DNA from: Fimbriimonadaceae bacterium
GTDB taxonomy: Bacteria; Armatimonadota; Fimbriimonadia; Fimbriimonadales; Fimbriimonadaceae
Assembly (NCBI GenBank): GCA_041911835.1
Contig: JAYROD010000345.1
Coordinates: 1 to 29,661, forward strand
DNA: 29,661 nt
Reading direction: 5' to 3'
Below the pieces are notes generated by a model. That model worked only from the letters and a program-made list of their open reading frames with translations, made no database searches and had not been told where the DNA came from. The translations under genes and the position numbers were made by a program. Position 1 is the first letter of the stretch. Every line of letters begins with the position of its first letter. Positions 11,153 to 25,215 of this stretch are shown piece after piece.

Positions 11153-11947
11153 GTGATCGCCATACCGGGACAGATTTACGACGCGCCGGGCGGGCTGCCA
11201 CTCGATTTCGACTTCTTCCGCCCGAATCACGACGACGTGCTGCCGTTGGTGGTTTTCACACACGGCGGGGGTTGGATCAGCGGCGACAAGACCCATTTTC
11301 ATGAGGAGGCCTTCTTCCTCTGCGACAATGGGTTCGCCTGCGCCTGTATCAGCTACCGTCTGGCTCCACTCCATCCGTTCCCAGCGGCAGTCGAGGACGC
11401 GCAGAACTTCATTCGCTTCGCCCGTGCCAACGCCGAAAAGCTGATGATCGATCCGAACAGGATTGCGGCTATGGGGAGCAGCGCTGGTGGGCATCTCGCC
11501 GCCATGCTGGGACTCTGCGACGAACTCATCGGCGCTGACCATCATCCCGAGTGGACCAAATTCAGCCCGAAGGTCAATGCCGTCGTCGACTTCAGCGGAA
11601 TCACAGACCTTACGGCGCCGCGCGAACAGCACCTGCCGATCGCCTGGTCATTCTTGGAGCAGTTCATGGGGGCTCCTTTCGAGGACAACGAGGATTTGTA
11701 TCAAAAGGCAAGTCCCATATTTCACGTATCAAAGACCGATGCTCCGTTTCTGATCGTGCACGGGGACATGGACGACGTGGTCCCTATCGACCACAGCGTT
11801 CGGCTCCAGCAAGCGCTGTCTGCCGTAGGAGTTTCGAGCGAGTTGGTCGTTCTCCCGGGAGAGGGGCATGGGTTCTCCCTCGAAGTGTGGGATGAAGTCC
11901 GCCAGATCTACCTCGGGTTTCTCAAGCGGACCCTGGGTGTAACCTAA
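11153..11947 (+). CDS. Alpha/beta hydrolase, hormone-sensitive-lipase/BD-FAE-like esterase
   Basis: Oxyanion motif HGGGW, nucleophile elbow [17 protein letters not shown] (Asp) and GEGHGF (His). GTG start at 11153 was chosen to avoid overlap with the divergent gene. Confidence 0.9.
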
Positions 11948-17253: not shown

Positions 17254-17616
17254 ATGCGCCTTTATCATCTGTTGAAAGCCAAGCTCCATCACGCGCGCGT
17301 CACGTACGCGAATGCAGACTATGTCGGAAGCATCCAGATTTGCGAGGACCTGATGACCCGCGTTGGGCTGATCGATGGGGAACTGGTTCACGTTTGGGCG
17401 GTCGATCACTCTGCCCGGATCGAGACGTATGCCTTCGGAGGGCCGCAGGGCGTGATTGGGCTGAACGGAGGGGCAGCACAGTTCTTTGAACCTGGAGACC
17501 GACTGATAATCGCGGCATTCGCGCTCTCCGACAAGCCGATCGTCCCCAAAATCGTATTGCTCGACGAGGAGAACCATGTCATCCGAGATCTCACACCCTT
17601 CAGCATCCTCGGTTGA
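17254..17616 (+). CDS. panD: Aspartate 1-decarboxylase
   Basis: LLKAKLHHARVT, self-cleavage site YVG-SI, RIETY, LNGGAA and GDRLIIAAF. Confidence 0.95.
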   Translation: MRLYHLLKAKLHHARVTYANADYVGSIQICEDLMTRVGLIDGELVHVWAVDHSARIETYAFGGPQGVIGLNGGAAQFFEPGDRLIIAAFALSDKPIVPKIVLLDEENHVIRDLTPFSILG

Positions 17617-18196
17617 CCTGGGCAGACTGCTCGAGGAGTCTGGCGCCATTCAAAAGGGCCATTTTGTCCTCTCGAGCGGGCGTCACAGCGACACGTATGT
17701 CGAGAAATTCCGCGTATTGGAGCGCCCGGACGTGCTTTCCGCGCTGTGCGGCGAGATCGTGGGTTGGCTGAGCGGCAAGTCGATCGAATTGGTTGCGGGG
17801 CCGACGACGGGGGGAGTCATCATTGCGTTCGAGATCGCCCGACAGGCCGGGACCCCCGCGATCTATGTGGAGAGCGTGGACGGCGTCAAGCAGATTCGCC
17901 GAAATGCCCAAATCCCCCCAGGTGCGCGAGTGTTGGTCGTCGATGACGTCCTCACGACGGGTGGATCGCTGATCGAAGTGGCCGAGGCCATTCGAATGGC
18001 CGGAGGCGAGGTGGTGGCCGCCGCGGTGCTCATCGACCGCTCCGAGGTCCCTTTGAACTTGGAGTACCCAATTTTCGCGGCATATCGAGTCGAGGCGAAA
18101 AGTTTTCCACAAGATTCTCTGCCGGAGTGGCTGGCAAAGACTCCGGCGGTCAAACCGGGGACCCGTCCGGGGGGATCTTCGAGCCCTTCAGGCTGA
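17576..18196 (+). CDS. pyrE: Orotate phosphoribosyltransferase
   Basis: GHFVLSSGRHS..YVEK, PRPP-binding motif LVVDDVLTTGGS and LIDRS. A GAGGAG RBS lies 4 nt before the ATG at 17576. Confidence 0.93.
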   Translation: MSSEISHPSASSVDLGRLLEESGAIQKGHFVLSSGRHSDTYVEKFRVLERPDVLSALCGEIVGWLSGKSIELVAGPTTGGVIIAFEIARQAGTPAIYVESVDGVKQIRRNAQIPPGARVLVVDDVLTTGGSLIEVAEAIRMAGGEVVAAAVLIDRSEVPLNLEYPIFAAYRVEAKSFPQDSLPEWLAKTPAVKPGTRPGGSSSPSG

Positions 18197-18333: not shown

Positions 18334-18362
18334 TTGAATGTCGCGCGTAAGTTTGCTATGAT
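18334..18362 (+). promoter_or_regulatory. Sigma70-type promoter for the large lipoprotein gene
   Basis: TTGAAT (18334-18339), exactly 17 nt, then TATGAT (18357-18362), with an extended -10 TG (TTTGcTATGAT). Confidence 0.75.
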
Positions 18363-18382: not shown

Positions 18383-18430
18383 CATCCATTACGGACAGTG
18401 GAGGAGCATCCATTAAGGACAGTGGAGGAG
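18383..18430 (+). repeat. Tandem 24-bp direct repeat (2 copies, 1 mismatch) in the lipoprotein 5' leader
   Basis: CATCCATTACGGACAGTGGAGGAG (18383-18406) followed by CATCCATTAAGGACAGTGGAGGAG (18407-18430). The ATG is at 18433. Confidence 0.95.
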
Positions 18431-18432
18431 AT

Positions 18433-21114
18433 ATGAGACAGAAGCGTGCGCGTGTTGCGCTTGCGTGGTTGTATCCACTCATAGTTTTGGCGTTGGGTGG
18501 CTCAGCCATCCTTTCGTCCACGGGCTGCGGTGGTTCCAGCGATAATGGCGGAACTGGCGGCTCGGGGACTCTTCGAGTTAATGCAACGTTTGCGCCGTCG
18601 ACGTCGAAGGAAGCGGACGGGTTCATTGGGTCTCTGCAGGTAACGGTTAAGGACTCTGCAGGTCAGGTTCAGGGAACACCGGCTTGTCTGACTCGATCGA
18701 ATACGTCGGCGCAGTTTGACAATCTTGCAGACGGCTCCGGCTACGTGGTTGAGGTCAAGGGTTACCGAGCCACCAACTGCAGCGGAGACGTTATGGCGAC
18801 GGCGAACATCGGAGCAACCGTCAACGGTACTTCGACTCCCGCGATCGATGTTTCGGCGAACCTTTCGTCGGCCATCACCAGCGTGACGATCGACCCACAA
18901 GGAATCGCTCCGTTTGATCCAGGCGCAACGGCCACTTTCACCGCTACGGCTAAGGCCGGCAGCACGGTGGTTTTGACCTCTGCCCAGGATTCCAGCTTCG
19001 TGTATTCGGTTACGCCGAGCACCCTCGGTACGATCAACCAGAGCACGGGCGTTTTCACCGCTGCCAGCAATCTGAACGCAGATACCGCCGGTACGGTTAG
19101 CGTCGCACTGAAGGGCCTCAGCGCCAGCAGCGCGATCTCCGTTAAGGCAGCTGTGGGTCAGGCTAAGTTCAAAGTGAAGTGGGGCGCTATTGAGTACAAG
19201 CGCGATGTCGCCGGTTATGCCGGTGGTGTTGGCGTCGTTCTCACGAACACCTCGACCGGTCTTGCTATTCCGGCATTCTTCGCTCGCCCGGCTAATTTGA
19301 ACGCCACCGAGCAGGAGTACTTCATCGGCGGCCCGAACGTTCAGCAGGGCGCCTATACGCTGCAGGTCGAAGCCTTCACCGGCAACACCGACGCAGCCCG
19401 AGGCAACAGCCTTGGTATCGTTACCGTTCCGTTGACGGTTCCCGTCACGGCTGCGAACGAAGTGACGATCAGCGATCGACTCGACGGCAACGTCGCCAAG
19501 ATCGTGATCTCCTACCTCCGCGGTACGTGGAAGGATCTCGCTCCTGGCGGAACGCTCAACATGTTCATTGGTGACACGGTCAACCTCGACGCGCGAGCTG
19601 TCGACTCGGCCGGTAACGCACTGTTCTTCTCCGACTTCATCAAGTTCACCGTTCCTGCAGGGCAGACCGTTGTGAACCTCGATGACGTCAACCAGAAGGT
19701 CAGCGGCGTCGCTCTCGGTTCCACCGTCCTCACCGCCAAGGCGGGCGTGGCTACGGGTCCGAGCGCCACTGCTAACATCGTGATCGGCGCCGGCTTCGTG
19801 GTTGCCTACCAGTTCTTCGACGATCGACCAGGCGCGTTCTGCCAGAACATCGCCGTCTCGACTCCTCGAAATGGCTTCGCAACCGCTACCGAGTGGGTCT
19901 GCGACGTCGGCAACAATGGCGACTACTTTGACTCCGTTTCCTATCCGAACGGCTTCGGTCTGACGGCTGGTAACGACTATCAGGTCATCGAGCCCGCCAT
20001 CAGCGCGGACGGCAAGTACTTGCTCTTCGTCGTTGACATTCTTCAGAGTGCAACGTTCGTCGGCAACTGCGCCAACTACGGCAAAGACATCGTCAGCATG
20101 CAGATCGTGTACGATTCGAACGGTCGAATCACCGGTCTCGTAAACCCGGCTCGCGAAACCAAGCCGAACGACGGACACGAAGATCGAATGCCGACCTTCA
20201 ATCCGAAGCTCGAGGGTGGCGCGGCTCTGCCGACCATGTACTGGTCATCGATGAACTTCAACCAGGCCGGCGTCTTCAATGGCGAGAACGGCACCCTCTG
20301 GGAGTTCGGCGTTCCTGGCTCTGACTGGCCCAGCGTTCGCAAGATCTTCAAGAAGGTCATCCACTCTGGCGAATCCACCCAGACTCAGGTCACCGGTGGT
20401 TCGATCGGAACGGGTGGCGCAGAAGGCAACCACTTCTGGCCCGTCATCAATCCGGATGGAGCCGTCATGGCCATCATCCAGAAGCAACCGGCAAGCGGAA
20501 TCAACTTCGTGCAGTTCGGCGACACCCTCGCCAACCAGTGGCCGCGAACGAACTCGGCAGTATCGCCGTTCTTCTCGTTCTTCGGTCTGCCGTTTGGTGG
20601 CGCAACTCCTGAAACCGACCTCGGCTTCGAGAGCGCTCCGAACGACTTCGCGAGCACAGTTCCGTGGACTGTCAACGTAGACAACGGCGGCGTAGCCTCC
20701 GGTCCGTTCCCTGGTCAGATCGTACTCTTCGACCTGGCTACAACGTCAACCGCGACTTCGCCCGAAGTCAACATCAACCAGCAGTATCGACTTGCATGGC
20801 GACCGACGAAGAACGAAATCTTCGCTGTTCGAAACATCGCCGGCTTCAATCGAATCGACGTTCTTGAGAACGCTGTGATCGGCTCGCCGCTCAACGTGTT
20901 CCGACAAGAGCAGACTGGTGTTGTTGCTCCGTTCGCCGCGATCATCGCCAACCCGCTTCTCGCAGGATTCGTCCCGCAGGAGACCCTGGCTTATCGCGAG
21001 CCGTCCGGACAGGTTCGATTCCGAACCGACCTCGACACGCCCAACCTCGTTGGCGACGTGTACCCGGGTATCGGCTTCGGTCAGAACGACGTCTTCCCAG
21101 TGCCGAACCGCTAA
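18433..21114 (+). CDS. Large (893 aa) surface lipoprotein: duplicated beta-sandwich plus Ig-like modules and a C-terminal TolB/PD40-like propeller region
   Basis: Start reassigned to ATG at 18433 after GGAGGAG (track start 18127). Basic N-region, hydrophobic H-region and lipobox-like STG-C32 followed by a Gly/Ser linker. Ig-like (Big_2-type) segments begin ITSVTIDP and VAKIVIS. Blade-like motifs are EPAISADGKYLLF, WPVINPDGAVMAI and LAWRPTKNEIFAV. Confidence 0.85.
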   Translation: MRQKRARVALAWLYPLIVLALGGSAILSSTGCGGSSDNGGTGGSGTLRVNATFAPSTSKEADGFIGSLQVTVKDSAGQVQGTPACLTRSNTSAQFDNLADGSGYVVEVKGYRATNCSGDVMATANIGATVNGTSTPAIDVSANLSSAITSVTIDPQGIAPFDPGATATFTATAKAGSTVVLTSAQDSSFVYSVTPSTLGTINQSTGVFTAASNLNADTAGTVSVALKGLSASSAISVKAAVGQAKFKVKWGAIEYKRDVAGYAGGVGVVLTNTSTGLAIPAFFARPANLNATEQEYFIGGPNVQQGAYTLQVEAFTGNTDAARGNSLGIVTVPLTVPVTAANEVTISDRLDGNVAKIVISYLRGTWKDLAPGGTLNMFIGDTVNLDARAVDSAGNALFFSDFIKFTVPAGQTVVNLDDVNQKVSGVALGSTVLTAKAGVATGPSATANIVIGAGFVVAYQFFDDRPGAFCQNIAVSTPRNGFATATEWVCDVGNNGDYFDSVSYPNGFGLTAGNDYQVIEPAISADGKYLLFVVDILQSATFVGNCANYGKDIVSMQIVYDSNGRITGLVNPARETKPNDGHEDRMPTFNPKLEGGAALPTMYWSSMNFNQAGVFNGENGTLWEFGVPGSDWPSVRKIFKKVIHSGESTQTQVTGGSIGTGGAEGNHFWPVINPDGAVMAIIQKQPASGINFVQFGDTLANQWPRTNSAVSPFFSFFGLPFGGATPETDLGFESAPNDFASTVPWTVNVDNGGVASGPFPGQIVLFDLATTSTATSPEVNINQQYRLAWRPTKNEIFAVRNIAGFNRIDVLENAVIGSPLNVFRQEQTGVVAPFAAIIANPLLAGFVPQETLAYREPSGQVRFRTDLDTPNLVGDVYPGIGFGQNDVFPVPNR

Positions 21115-21137: not shown

Positions 21138-21175
21138 GGAACCCCGGCCCCCAAAAGGGCCGGGGTCCTTTTTTT
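21138..21175 (+). terminator. Rho-independent terminator of the lipoprotein gene
   Basis: ACCCCGGCCC, loop CCAAAA, GGGCCGGGGT (perfect 10-bp stem), then CC and seven T. Confidence 0.92.
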
Positions 21176-21194: not shown

Positions 21195-22538
21195 CTAAGA
21201 GCCCTTGGCCATGCGAGCGAAGGTCTCTTTATCGACCGCCCGCATCATGCACTCTTCATAAGAGCAGTAGCCGTTCTTGAAGAGGTCCGCAAGGGATCGG
21301 TCCATCGTCTGCATCCCCAGCTGGGCAGATGTCTCGATAACTGAGTACATCTGGTGGGTCTTGCCCTCGCGGATGAGGTTCTTGATAGCCGGCGAACCAA
21401 TCATGATCTCGATGGCGGCGTTTCGACCTCCGCCGAGGCGAGGCAGAAGCTGCTGAGACACAACTCCCTCGAGCGTGTTACCCAGGAGCACGCGGATCTG
21501 ATCCTGCTGATCGCTGGGAAACACGTCGATGACGCGGTCGACGGTAGATGGCGCGTTCCGGGTGTGGAGCGTTCCAAACACCAGGTGTCCCGTTTCGGCG
21601 AGAGTGAGCGCGGCTTCGATGGTTTCCAGGTCGCGAAGTTCACCGACGAGGATGATGTCTGGGTCCTCGCGGAGCACTGCGCGCAGGGAATTGTGGAAGC
21701 TGAATGTGTCCGAGTGCATCTCCCGTTGGTTCACCATGCACTTCTTGTGGGAGTGGAGGTATTCGATCGGGTCCTCGATGGTGAGGATGTGCGCCTGGCG
21801 GTTGTCGTTGATGTCGTCGATCATCGTGGCGATCGTCGTCGATTTGCCCGATCCGGTCGGACCCGTGACCAGCACAAGACCAGATGAGCGCTTCGCCATC
21901 TCTCGGATGGTGTTAGGCAGGCCGAGCTGCTCGAAGCTGGGGATCTTGGTCGGAATGGCACGAAGGGCCGCGGCAACGCTTCCGCGTTGCATATAGGCGT
22001 TGAATCGAAAGCGACCGAGATCCTTCACACCATAACCGAAGTCCAGTTCGTGCGTGTCCTCGAATTTTTGCAGGTTATCGTTGGAAAGCGTGTCATAGAC
22101 CAACCGACGAGCGTCTTGGGCCTCAAGTGGCACGTAGGGAAGCGGAACGATCTCGCCATCGACCCGGACCATTGGTGGGAGCCCCACCGTGATATGAACG
22201 TCGCTTGCCTTCCGTTCGACCGCCATCCGGAGGATGTCGTCGATGTGTACGCCGTTCAGCGGCTGAGCATTCTCCATGGAGTACGTGTTCAGCTTGTGGC
22301 CGGCCTCGTTGCCTACGTCGTACTTGCTCGCGTTCACTTCGGGCATCAGCACCGATTCGGGGACCGGGGCTGGGGTGTACCCGTTCTGACGCGGCGGCGC
22401 ATCCGTTTCGGGTATCGCTTTGGCGTTGACGGGCATCCCATTCCGGGGATCGATCGCCAAGCCCTCCTTTTCAGCGGGGTTCGCTACGGTGGGCTGATCA
22501 CCCAGCACCTTGTTCCAAGAGAACTCTTTTTCTGCCAT
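21195..22538 (-). CDS. pilT: Type IV pilus retraction ATPase PilT with an N-terminal extension
   Basis: ASDVHITVG.PP..RVDG, GRFRFNAY, Walker A GPTGSGKSTT, TIEDPIE, LREDPDIILVGELRD, His box HLVFGTLHT, and AIKNLIRE (AIRNLIRE-like). Confidence 0.95.
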   Translation of the reverse strand: MAEKEFSWNKVLGDQPTVANPAEKEGLAIDPRNGMPVNAKAIPETDAPPRQNGYTPAPVPESVLMPEVNASKYDVGNEAGHKLNTYSMENAQPLNGVHIDDILRMAVERKASDVHITVGLPPMVRVDGEIVPLPYVPLEAQDARRLVYDTLSNDNLQKFEDTHELDFGYGVKDLGRFRFNAYMQRGSVAAALRAIPTKIPSFEQLGLPNTIREMAKRSSGLVLVTGPTGSGKSTTIATMIDDINDNRQAHILTIEDPIEYLHSHKKCMVNQREMHSDTFSFHNSLRAVLREDPDIILVGELRDLETIEAALTLAETGHLVFGTLHTRNAPSTVDRVIDVFPSDQQDQIRVLLGNTLEGVVSQQLLPRLGGGRNAAIEIMIGSPAIKNLIREGKTHQMYSVIETSAQLGMQTMDRSLADLFKNGYCSYEECMMRAVDKETFARMAKGS

Positions 22539-22548
22539 TGTTTTTCAC

Positions 22549-23442
22549 CTAAAGTGGTAGCTGCGCGGCCGATCGAATCGCCGCGCTTCCTTCCAGCACG
22601 AAAGTCTCGGCCCTTTGAGCCGTCAAGTTGAGAGCGTCCATCGCCCATGCAGGCAGCGCGAGCGGTTCGTCTTCGCCTTCCTCGGGCACTTTGGCTTTGC
22701 CCATGACTGTGAGATGGGCGATATGATGAGCGATGCATGTGCAGGCTTTGAGCGTCCTGTGAGGGTCATCGGGGGGCGCTTCATCGTCGTAATTGAGACC
22801 TGCCGTCAGCTCCTCAGGAAATCCCCACTTGGCGCCGACCGCGCTTGCCACTTCGATGTGGTCGCAGCCGTACGCGACTTGCTCGGATTGGCGATCCCCA
22901 TACCCGGCTTCGCGAGCCGCTTTGTAGAACTCAAACCGTTCAGGATTGGACTGATCCAAGAGCGTCTTGCCCACATAGTGAAGCAGCCCGCAGGTGTAGC
23001 ACTCTTCCGCGTTGAGACCGGGCACTTGCGATGCGATCCAGCGAGCACAGACTCCGGTATCGACCGATTGCCTCCACCAAGCGCGTCTCCTAAGCGACTC
23101 GGCGTCAGTCTTGCCTAAGAACAGCTCAAACACACCCATCGTCATGGCCAACTGGCGCACGGCACGAAATCCGAGAAAAGTGATCGCGTCCCGGATAGAC
23201 GTCACCTTTCTCGGCAATCCATAGTAGGCGGAATTCGCCATGGTGAGCAGCTTCGCCGAGAAGCCAGGGTCGACCACGATCACCGCCTCCATCTGCCTGG
23301 CAGAAGAGTCGGTCGAACCCGTGAGGTCGACGACTTTGAACACGACCTGAGGCAGGACGGCGATGTCCTGAATCCTGCTCAAGACGAATTCTAGGCCGGT
23401 CTCGTTGGGGTCTAGTGACAAAGCGGACAACTGGCCCTCCAT
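22549..23442 (-). CDS. Standalone HDOD-domain protein
   Basis: LPQVV.KV......S.......I..DPGFSAKLLTMANSAYYG...VTSIRDAITFLG, CGLLHYVGK, and HIEV...VGAKWGFPEEL. Confidence 0.9.
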   Translation of the reverse strand: MEGQLSALSLDPNETGLEFVLSRIQDIAVLPQVVFKVVDLTGSTDSSARQMEAVIVVDPGFSAKLLTMANSAYYGLPRKVTSIRDAITFLGFRAVRQLAMTMGVFELFLGKTDAESLRRRAWWRQSVDTGVCARWIASQVPGLNAEECYTCGLLHYVGKTLLDQSNPERFEFYKAAREAGYGDRQSEQVAYGCDHIEVASAVGAKWGFPEELTAGLNYDDEAPPDDPHRTLKACTCIAHHIAHLTVMGKAKVPEEGEDEPLALPAWAMDALNLTAQRAETFVLEGSAAIRSAAQLPL

Positions 23443-23475
23443 TTCAGGTCGAACGACGGTCGATCGGCAAGATTG

Positions 23476-25215
23476 CTAAGCATAAATCACCCTGAGGACT
23501 TCATCGACGCTGGTGACGCCCATGAGGATCTTCTGGACGGCGTCCATCTGCAGCGTGCGCATGTCGTTTTGCGTTGCCAGCCGGCGAAGGACGTGGCTTG
23601 GCGATTTCTTTAAGATTTCGTCCCGAATCTCATCATTGAATGTCATCAGCTCGTGCACTCCTGTTCTCCCACGATAGCCGGTGCCCTTGCAATGGTCGCA
23701 CCCGGCGCCACGGAAGAGGGTGATCTCTCCATGCGTGTCGGCTCCGATCTCATCGGGCACTGGAAAACCGTAGCGAACGAGGCTTTCTCGAGTGGCGCTG
23801 TAAGATTCCTTGCAATGCGGGCAGATTTGGCGCACCAGACGCTGGGCCAGAACCCCAATGATCGAGGACGAGATGAGGAATGGCTCGACATCCATGTCGA
23901 TCAAACGGGTCGCGGCGGACGGAGCGTCATTCGTGTGCAGCGTGCTGAGTACGAGGTGGCCGGTGAGCGCCGCTTCCATGGCGATCGTGGCGGTTTCGGA
24001 ATCGCGCATTTCGCCAACCATGATGATGTCCGGGTCCTGTCGAAGCATCGCCCTCAATCCCGCAGAAAACGTCATGCCGGCTCGAACGTTCACATTGCAC
24101 TGGTTGATGCCGTCGAGTTCGTATTCCACGGGGTCCTCGATCGTGACGATGTTCGTGTCACCGGTGGCGATCTTGTTAATGAGGGAGTAGAGCGTGGTGG
24201 ACTTACCCGAGCCCGTGGGGCCCGTCACCAGGATGATTCCGTAGCTTCTGGAGCCCATGTCCTCGAGGATCTTCAAGTTGTGGGGAAGGAAGCCCAATTT
24301 GGTGAGACCGATATTGACGCTGCCCTTGTCGAGGACGCGGAGGACGATCTTTTCGCCGTGCACGACAGGAAGGGTCGAGACACGGAAGTCAAAATCCCTG
24401 CCGCCGATCGTGGCGCTGACACGGTTGTCCTGGGGTACTCGTTTCTCGGCGATGTCCATGTTGGACATGATCTTGAATCTCGAGGTGAGCGGCGCCGTGA
24501 CCTTCTTTGGGAGGCGCATGGATTCGAGCATGACGCCATCCACCCTGTACCGGACCAACAGCGAATCCTTCCGGGGTTCGATGTGGATGTCGCTGGCCTT
24601 GTCAGTGACGGCCTGGTTGATGATCAGGGAGGCCAGCCGGATGATCGGGGCATCCTCTCCCAATTCACGAAGTTCGGCTTCGCTCAGTTCCTCTTCGTCG
24701 CGTGTCGCGAGTTCGAAGTCGCCGTCGAAGTCTTTCATGACGCCTTCGATGGCGTCGGTCATGTTGAATTCGATCTTGTAGTGAACCGAGAGCGAAGCGT
24801 CGATGTCCTCTTCGACGGCAATCATCGGTTCAATTTCCATCCCGGTGCTGAGGCGCAATTCGTCGATCACGAAGATGTCGAGGGGATTCGCCATCGCGAC
24901 GACGAGCTTGTTCCCCTGGATCTCGGTCGGCACCGTCTTGAAGCGCTTGGCAACTTGGGGCGTGAGGTACTGGAGCGCCTCGGGCTGTGGAACGACGTCC
25001 CCGATGTCGATGTATTGGATCCCCCAGACCTTGCCCAGGCAGCGCACCCTGTCTCGCTCGGCGATGAGTCCCATCTCCACGAGCACACGAGCGATCGGCT
25101 CGTTACCACCGAGCTCTCGCTGTTTATCCATGGCCAACCTGAGCTGCTCGCTGTTGATCAGCCCCTCTTCAACAAATACTTCGCCCGTAAGCATGCGCCA
25201 ATGCAGGTATTCCAT
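23476..25215 (-). CDS. pilB: Type IV pilus assembly / GspE-family ATPase PilB with an MshEN-like N-terminus
   Basis: ASDIHIEP, MDIAEKRVPQD, Walker A GPTGSGKSTTLY, TIEDPVE, LRQDPDIIMVGEMRD, HLVLSTLHTN, tetracysteine motif CPHC...CDHC and GYRGRTGVHE. PilB rather than GspE is inferred from the adjacent pilT. Confidence 0.92.
   Translation of the reverse strand: MEYLHWRMLTGEVFVEEGLINSEQLRLAMDKQRELGGNEPIARVLVEMGLIAERDRVRCLGKVWGIQYIDIGDVVPQPEALQYLTPQVAKRFKTVPTEIQGNKLVVAMANPLDIFVIDELRLSTGMEIEPMIAVEEDIDASLSVHYKIEFNMTDAIEGVMKDFDGDFELATRDEEELSEAELRELGEDAPIIRLASLIINQAVTDKASDIHIEPRKDSLLVRYRVDGVMLESMRLPKKVTAPLTSRFKIMSNMDIAEKRVPQDNRVSATIGGRDFDFRVSTLPVVHGEKIVLRVLDKGSVNIGLTKLGFLPHNLKILEDMGSRSYGIILVTGPTGSGKSTTLYSLINKIATGDTNIVTIEDPVEYELDGINQCNVNVRAGMTFSAGLRAMLRQDPDIIMVGEMRDSETATIAMEAALTGHLVLSTLHTNDAPSAATRLIDMDVEPFLISSSIIGVLAQRLVRQICPHCKESYSATRESLVRYGFPVPDEIGADTHGEITLFRGAGCDHCKGTGYRGRTGVHELMTFNDEIRDEILKKSPSHVLRRLATQNDMRTLQMDAVQKILMGVTSVDEVLRVIYA

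Follow-up and report, generated by a model that had tools for sequence, protein, structure and literature searches.

The DNA analyzed here (hereafter the window) comprises 29,661 nucleotides (nt), positions 1 to 29,661 of contig JAYROD010000345.1 of a Fimbriimonadaceae bacterium (Armatimonadota; assembly GCA_041911835.1), whose genome is a metagenome-assembled genome (MAG) of 2.8 Mb that is 89% complete. The window carries a gene for a lipoprotein of 893 amino acids (aa), designated P0001 (other P numbers denote its relatives and G numbers denote related genomes), in which a lipobox and a short Gly/Ser tether are followed by two copies of a two-domain beta-sandwich module and by a C-terminal domain that most likely is a diverged beta-propeller (Table 1). 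An earlier note on this DNA, made without database searches, had proposed this architecture of a lipoprotein with a tether, a duplicated module of a sandwich plus an immunoglobulin-like (Ig) domain and a propeller-like tip, and our analysis supports that proposal, for the tip in part. None of the outcomes that the note had named as contrary to its proposal was observed.

The open reading frame (ORF) is real. A strong ribosome-binding site, GGAGGAG, lies 2 nt before its ATG, and the N-termini of the orthologues begin at the same residues (MRQKRAR/MTNKRAR), which supports this start over an upstream GTG at 18127. The gene has a sigma-70-type promoter, with hexamers roughly retained at the orthologous loci of G003 and G020, and an intrinsic terminator of its own, and it begins 237 nt after the preceding gene; it thus represents a monocistronic transcription unit. 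The database model of the closest orthologue, P0003, begins 54 codons too early; its residues 1-54 result from in-frame reading through promoter and leader and are near-identical to the upstream region of the window.

Table 1. Features of the lipoprotein gene, its product and its surroundings. Positions are those of the window and residues those of P0001; pLDDT, predicted local distance difference test score.
Feature	Residues	Position	Strand	Remark
Sigma-70-type promoter		18334-18362	+	TTGAAT-17-TATGAT with TG extension
5' leader, two 24-nt units		18386-18432	+	Each unit: short hairpin with GGA-containing hexaloop, then GGAGGAG
Lipoprotein ORF	1-893	18433-21114	+	893 aa, ATG at 18433
Signal peptide with lipobox SSTG-C	1-32	18433-18528	+	Cys32 is the predicted lipidation site
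Gly/Ser-rich tether	33-44	18529-18564	+	pLDDT <50
D1, seven-stranded beta-sandwich, first domain of module 1	45-146	18565-18870	+	pLDDT 73-88
D2, Big_2-like Ig domain, second domain of module 1	147-241	18871-19155	+
D3, beta-sandwich, first domain of module 2	242-353	19156-19491	+	Profile match to D1
D4, Big_2-like Ig domain, second domain of module 2	354-453	19492-19791	+
C-terminal domain	454-893	19792-21111	+	Probable diverged six-bladed PD40/TolB-type propeller with long insertions
Most variable stretch, aromatic/Gly/Pro-rich insertion between putative blades	691-760	20503-20712	+
Intrinsic terminator hairpin, GC-rich, bidirectional		21141-21175	+	Common to the convergent pilT-like gene; end also placed at 21166
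PyrE-like phosphoribosyltransferase gene		17576-18196		206 aa, upstream
Four-codon frame GTG-GAG-GAG-ATA-TGA		18421-18435		Inside the second leader unit
pilB(MshEN)-HDOD-pilT-like trio		21195-25215	-	Convergent with the lipoprotein gene

The N-terminus satisfies a PROSITE PS51257-style lipobox rule, [LIVMFWSTAG]2-LIVMFYSTAGCQ-[AGS]-C with the Cys within the first ~35 residues behind a charged n-region and a hydrophobic h-region. Basic residues of the n-region are R2, K4, R5 and R7, the h-region covers residues 8-27, and the lipobox Cys is kept in 15 of the 16 aligned relatives. Together with the Gly/Ser linker that follows Cys32, these features support the proposal of a tethered lipoprotein.

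The two-module duplication was confirmed, by a route other than the one first suggested. The similarity between residues 45-241 and 242-453 that the earlier note had quoted directly is not significant in pairwise comparison (Smith-Waterman score 46, z 0.6 against shuffles), whereas the duplication itself was recovered from family profiles and relatives. When the slices of the two modules were taken from the family alignment (A1, 16 sequences) and compared profile against profile, they aligned over 184 columns with a probability of 99.6% and an E-value of 7.8e-25, and the match persisted after removal of the three relatives with obviously similar modules (E 1.6e-16) and when only close relatives were used (E 2.2e-5), compared to E-values of 0.36-0.99 for 15 column-shuffled controls. 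Moreover, the internal repeats of P0017 and P0012 are obvious (z 45 and 60, respectively, with modules ~41% identical), and either module of P0001 matches both modules of P0017 with z 7-10.

Two further lipoproteins of the same genome touch on this module. A paralogue on contig C29 (L002 645-1952, minus strand; 446 aa, or 435 aa from ATG) is 52% identical to P0001, is made up of just the two modules and ends exactly at the end of module 2, which sets the domain boundary at about residue 453; the modules can therefore stand independently of the C-terminal domain. Its gene directly follows a helicase-like gene and is not preceded by the conserved leader described below. A lipoprotein of 237 aa on contig C304 (L003 404-1117) contains one Big_2-like domain and is related to residues 147-273 only (33% identity, E 6e-10), its remaining C-terminal part being unrelated.

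Modeling with AlphaFold on A1 folded residues 44-453 into four beta-sandwiches at a pLDDT of ~80-90, each module having 7 + 10 strands, in agreement with the suggestion that each module is a beta-sandwich followed by an Ig-like domain. According to these models, D2 and D4 have the Big_2-type Ig fold: the matches of D2 include LigA (8gyr, Z 11.7), a Big_2-CBM56 protein (7quz, Z 11.0) and a phi29 capsid domain (6qvk, Z 9.8), those of D4 include SbsC (4uid, Z 10.2) and Sap (8s83, Z 9.4), and 2n7s and 1f02 (both Z 8.1) are further matches of this type. The Big_2 family (PF02368, gathering threshold 22.8 bits) gave no Pfam match to P0001 at E <= 1, and its relatives P0009 and P0018 score 23.8 bits, above the cut-off, and 22.7 bits. 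In the models, D1 and D3 resemble CnaB/prealbumin-like sandwiches of the rhamnogalacturonan-lyase type, where Z-values near 8.5 denote a common arrangement only. D1 matches rhamnogalacturonan lyase and CnaB2 of Lactobacillus plantarum with Z 8.6-8.7 over 83-91 residues (1nkg, Z 8.7; CnaB2 8bdw, Z 8.6), and D3 matches 2yjl (Z 8.3). Unlike those sandwiches, D1 has no detected sequence family, as the first sandwich domain hit no Pfam family and had no named family among its language-model neighbours. The Foldseek search with the whole model returned arrays of Ig-like domains, among them the S-layer proteins Sap, EA1 and SbsC as well as cadherins, with low global template modeling scores (TM-scores) of ~0.1, as is to be expected for domains arranged like beads on a string. 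Regarding the spaced cysteines, which had been suggested to form disulfides, C85 and C116 are both present in 6 and both absent in 10 of the 16 aligned sequences, a pattern consistent with a probable disulfide in D1, and C470, C490 and C546 are less conserved than this pair.

The C-terminal domain is most likely, if unproven, a diverged six-bladed propeller of the PD40/TolB type. The PD40 family (PF07676, cut-off 20.9 bits) is recognized in the orthologues P0003 (24.7 bits) and P0004 (24.5 bits), and scores rise to 112-120 bits in the distant relatives P0012, P0017 and P0018, whose modules are followed by canonical PD40 propellers at the position equivalent to residues 454-893. All of the ten best language-model neighbours of this region are PD40 or TolB-like (at 0.92). 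PD40-type blade motifs were found at residues 519-535, 585-605 and 667-683, with the hairpins EPAISADGKYLLF (from 519), RMPTFNPK...MYWSS (from 585) and FWPVINPDGAVMAI (from 667), and further PD40-like hairpins are LAWRPTKNEIFAV (from ~786) and LAYREPSGQVRF (from ~853), while long insertions occupy residues 608-660 and 691-760. When the region was folded alone, the model had ~six strand groups, a pLDDT of 41 and a predicted template modeling score (pTM) of 0.53, and all 50 of the best structure matches to this low-confidence model were propellers. Among them, TolB entries showed the lowest root-mean-square deviation (rmsd) and the highest identity (1c5k, Z 12.8, rmsd 3.3, 202 aligned residues, 16% identity; 2ojh, Z 12.5).

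The family to which P0001 belongs is narrow. Whole-protein searches against Pfam, NCBIfam and PDB sequences returned nothing significant, and neither Pfam nor NCBIfam showed an enzyme family in P0001 at E <= 1. The exhaustive phmmer search, which covered 1.84 billion representatives, recovered 15 proteins, of which only P0004, P0008 and P0013 extend their alignment past the modules to the C-terminal domain, and word-indexed homology searches with the whole protein, with residues 454-893 or with the N-terminal profile gave 3-4 proteins each. The single-protein search of a collection of genome contigs returned no relative, and the sole named relative comes from an Armatimonadota MAG. As regards the placement of the source genome, its FliI is 67% identical to that of a Fimbriimonadia MAG and 61% identical to that of an Armatimonadota MAG, which places the genome in the class Fimbriimonadia of the Armatimonadota. 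The closest FliI relative (71%; L008, CALRMU020000002.1) is from a MAG that bears the name Synechococcus sp. UW140; since this flagellar ATPase is most similar to those of Fimbriimonadia, the bin is probably mislabelled or contaminated.

The gene is present in 3 of 41 related genomes, with syntenic orthologues in two further genera (G003 and G020), and in all three cases it is placed after a CcmF-like gene and a PyrE-like phosphoribosyltransferase gene. The same CcmF-like/PyrE-like backbone also occurs in genera without the lipoprotein gene, where the slot is empty or otherwise filled, indicating that the gene is an accessory insertion at a conserved junction and not the member of an operon. 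A link in one operon with the CcmF-like and phosphoribosyltransferase genes was considered and rejected on the grounds of the separate promoter, the 237-nt gap and the adjacency of the pair in genomes that lack the lipoprotein. With its GHFVLSSGRHSDTYVEKF motif, the upstream phosphoribosyltransferase resembles PyrE rather than ComF; identity within its family is 57-65%, and its gene always follows the CcmF-like gene, which encodes ~800 aa. On the other side, the HDOD and pilT-like pair of the convergent trio also adjoins the orthologue in G003, which faces the two genes convergently, and the pair occurs in genomes without the lipoprotein as well.

The lipoprotein evolves much faster than its neighbour, since the orthologue in G020 has three modules and is 25-29% identical to P0001, compared to 63% for the adjacent phosphoribosyltransferase. 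The divergence is also a mosaic and is concentrated in the distal Ig domain D4 and in the propeller insertions. With P0003, identity is 92-95% in D1-D3, 63% in D4, 62% in residues 454-690, 46% in residues 691-760 and 84% in residues 761-893; considering the orthologues, residues 691-760 are 38-46% identical, compared to 82-84% for residues 761-893.

The sequence in front of the gene behaves differently from the protein that it precedes. The second GGAGGAG of the leader is the Shine-Dalgarno sequence. In G020, where the encoded protein is only 25-29% identical, the leader is identical over 47 nt amid an intergenic region that otherwise cannot be aligned, and G003 retains the second unit. This conservation lends support to a function of the leader. 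The motif was found in 3 of 41 genomes and solely in front of the lipoprotein gene, the other copies being at L088 11559-11605 and L089 ~11668-11700, both on the minus strand. It matched no Rfam family, and its hairpin is not shared with the three flagellin leaders. A CsrA gene is present in the source genome, in which FliW was not found. Besides, the TGA of the four-codon frame within the second unit overlaps the ATG of the lipoprotein gene (ATATGA), which may reflect a mini-ORF, translational coupling or chance.

Altogether, we consider it probable that P0001 is a lipid-anchored stalk of four sandwiches that bears a diverged propeller and serves as a non-enzymatic binder at the cell envelope. 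Under this interpretation, processing by signal peptidase II would leave Cys32 as a lipid anchor with the short Gly/Ser tether next to it; the four sandwiches, which arose by duplication of a module of a CnaB/prealbumin-like sandwich plus a Big_2-type Ig domain, would form a bead-on-string stalk, and this stalk would hold out a C-terminal six-bladed PD40 (TolB-type) propeller with long loop insertions. Its role would most likely be the non-enzymatic binding of a protein, peptide or polymer ligand, either at the envelope or on the cell surface, and its specificity would reside in the distal part, D4 and the propeller, which is the fastest-changing portion. An outer membrane is likely, since the genome has an Omp85/BamA gene. 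The adhesin, S-layer-like or glycan-binding protein suggested in the earlier note is plausible.

Several observations weigh against this interpretation, most of them concerning the propeller. In P0001 itself PD40 remains below the Pfam cut-off (15.3 bits, E 0.021), canonical PD40 propellers are matched only weakly at the profile level (E 1e-3, probability 20%), and self-comparison of residues 454-893 gave no significant internal blade repeat. The C-terminal pLDDT is <50 both in the model of the whole protein and in that of the domain alone, the re-folding of which brought no gain in confidence, and five-bladed propellers of glycoside hydrolase (GH) families GH32, GH43 and GH68 match that model as high as TolB does (Z 11-13.7, at 6-10% identity). 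The propeller-like tip has been shown in part only. Two further points concern function and membrane placement, namely that no conserved functional neighbour of the gene is known, as the CcmF-like and PyrE-like genes also occur in genomes without it, and that LolA was not found in the source MAG, which is 89% complete.

The resemblance to five-bladed propellers is also the basis for considering a lipid-tethered carbohydrate-active enzyme, in which a GH43/GH32/GH68-like propeller on an Ig stalk would act on an external polysaccharide. Levansucrase, GH32 and GH43 structures are first in Z and aligned length among the matches to the C-terminal model (3om4, Z 13.7, 265 aligned; 6nob, Z 13.2), and GH15 and GH127 genes lie in the window, 4-6 kb from the lipoprotein gene. 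However, these matches come from the low-confidence model, and their 6-10% identity falls short of the 15-16% of TolB; Pfam gave no GH family even with E <= 1 as the limit, both the motifs in the sequence and the relatives in the family are of the PD40 type, ~six rather than five strand groups are predicted, and the C-terminal alignment has a single invariant acidic residue, which together make an enzyme quite improbable. The TolB-type resemblance could alternatively point inward, to a scaffold anchored in the inner membrane or in the inner leaflet of the outer membrane, whose propeller would bind an envelope partner, for instance a Pal-like or peptidoglycan-associated protein, and which would not be a surface-exposed binder. 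With LolA not found, lipoproteins may remain in the inner membrane, and the protein is lipid-anchored, with a stalk that would reach across periplasmic distances. Core envelope machinery is usually conserved, whereas this gene is patchy and accessory and diverges very fast, and the N-terminal domain of TolB is absent according to Pfam, so that we regard a periplasmic scaffold as unlikely.

A component of a surface lattice, that is, an S-layer-like coat built from Ig-like domains, is suggested by the Foldseek and VIA lists, which are headed by Sap, EA1, SbsC and SbsB. Yet these S-layer proteins appear among the fold matches solely because Ig-like domains are held in common, and with such generic domains and global TM-scores of ~0.1 we give a lattice component very little weight, the more so as no SLH or other lattice-anchoring domain was found in Pfam at E <= 1 and the gene is carried by few genera, whereas a lineage normally retains its S-layer genes. 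Additionally, S-layer proteins of bacteria do not usually carry a lipid anchor. Hardly credible is the type V (FimA/Mfa1-like) lipoprotein pilin that had been offered as a speculative alternative, with the first domain as a pilin fold polymerizing by strand exchange: P0001 does share a lipoprotein precursor and transthyretin-like sandwiches with such pilins, and CnaB-containing pilins of Gram-positive bacteria gave weak matches (3kpt, Z 8.3; 3htl, Z 7.8), but no FimA/Mfa1-type chain was among the 50 best fold matches, no pilin family was found in Pfam, no usher or anchor genes are adjacent, and a multidomain protein of 893 aa with a propeller tip is unfit as a polymerizing subunit.

The envelope-bound binder that we favor is assembled from parts of known kinds (lipoprotein, Big_2, PD40 and CnaB-like sandwich), and it is the family itself that is unannotated and tiny. 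D2 and D4 share their fold and the tandem stalk with the Big_2 (PF02368) arrays of LigA/LigB, intimin/invasin and SbsC. In contrast to these arrays, P0001 alternates its Ig domains with a second, unclassified sandwich domain and is anchored by lipid instead of a beta-barrel or an SLH domain, and no binding to a host matrix is implied. With the six-bladed TolB/PD40 proteins it shares PD40-type blade motifs and a weak model that superposes on TolB; however, TolB is soluble in the periplasm, whereas P0001 is lipid-anchored and has long insertions and blades too diverged for significant self-similarity. P0001 is not TolB, given that it has no N-terminal TolB domain (Pfam) and that its gene is not in a tol-pal cluster, its neighbours in the window being the CcmF-like gene, the PyrE-like phosphoribosyltransferase gene and the pilT/HDOD/pilB genes. 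P0001 also resembles the uncharacterized Armatimonadota lipoproteins P0012, P0017 and P0018, which have the same lipobox, sandwich plus Big_2 module and C-terminal propeller, with the module duplicated in P0012 and P0017; compared to these, the modules of P0001 have diverged beyond pairwise detection and its propeller is heavily remodelled. No publication was retrieved in a literature search that combined PD40 with Big_2.

To our knowledge, Armatimonadota (Fimbriimonadia) have received little study and most of them are uncultured, their envelope proteins being almost unknown. P0001 defines a family that is very small but clearly laid out, with lipid anchor, duplicated sandwich plus Big_2 modules and propeller tip, and it provides a worked example of a duplication that is hidden from pairwise comparison and recovered via relatives. 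Probably it is an ordinary fast-evolving binding protein, and as most likely one more modular binding protein it adds little biologically by itself. The more promising lead is a regulatory one, as conservation of the leader far exceeds that of the gene behind it. It is conceivable, although we find it somewhat doubtful, that P0001 is a lineage-private, fast-diversifying surface receptor, such as an attachment factor or the target of a phage or antagonist, with its translation gated by a gene-private operator of GGA hairpins over the Shine-Dalgarno sequence. If this holds true, it would point to a CsrA-type or other RNA-binding mechanism that controls a single variable envelope protein in Armatimonadota.

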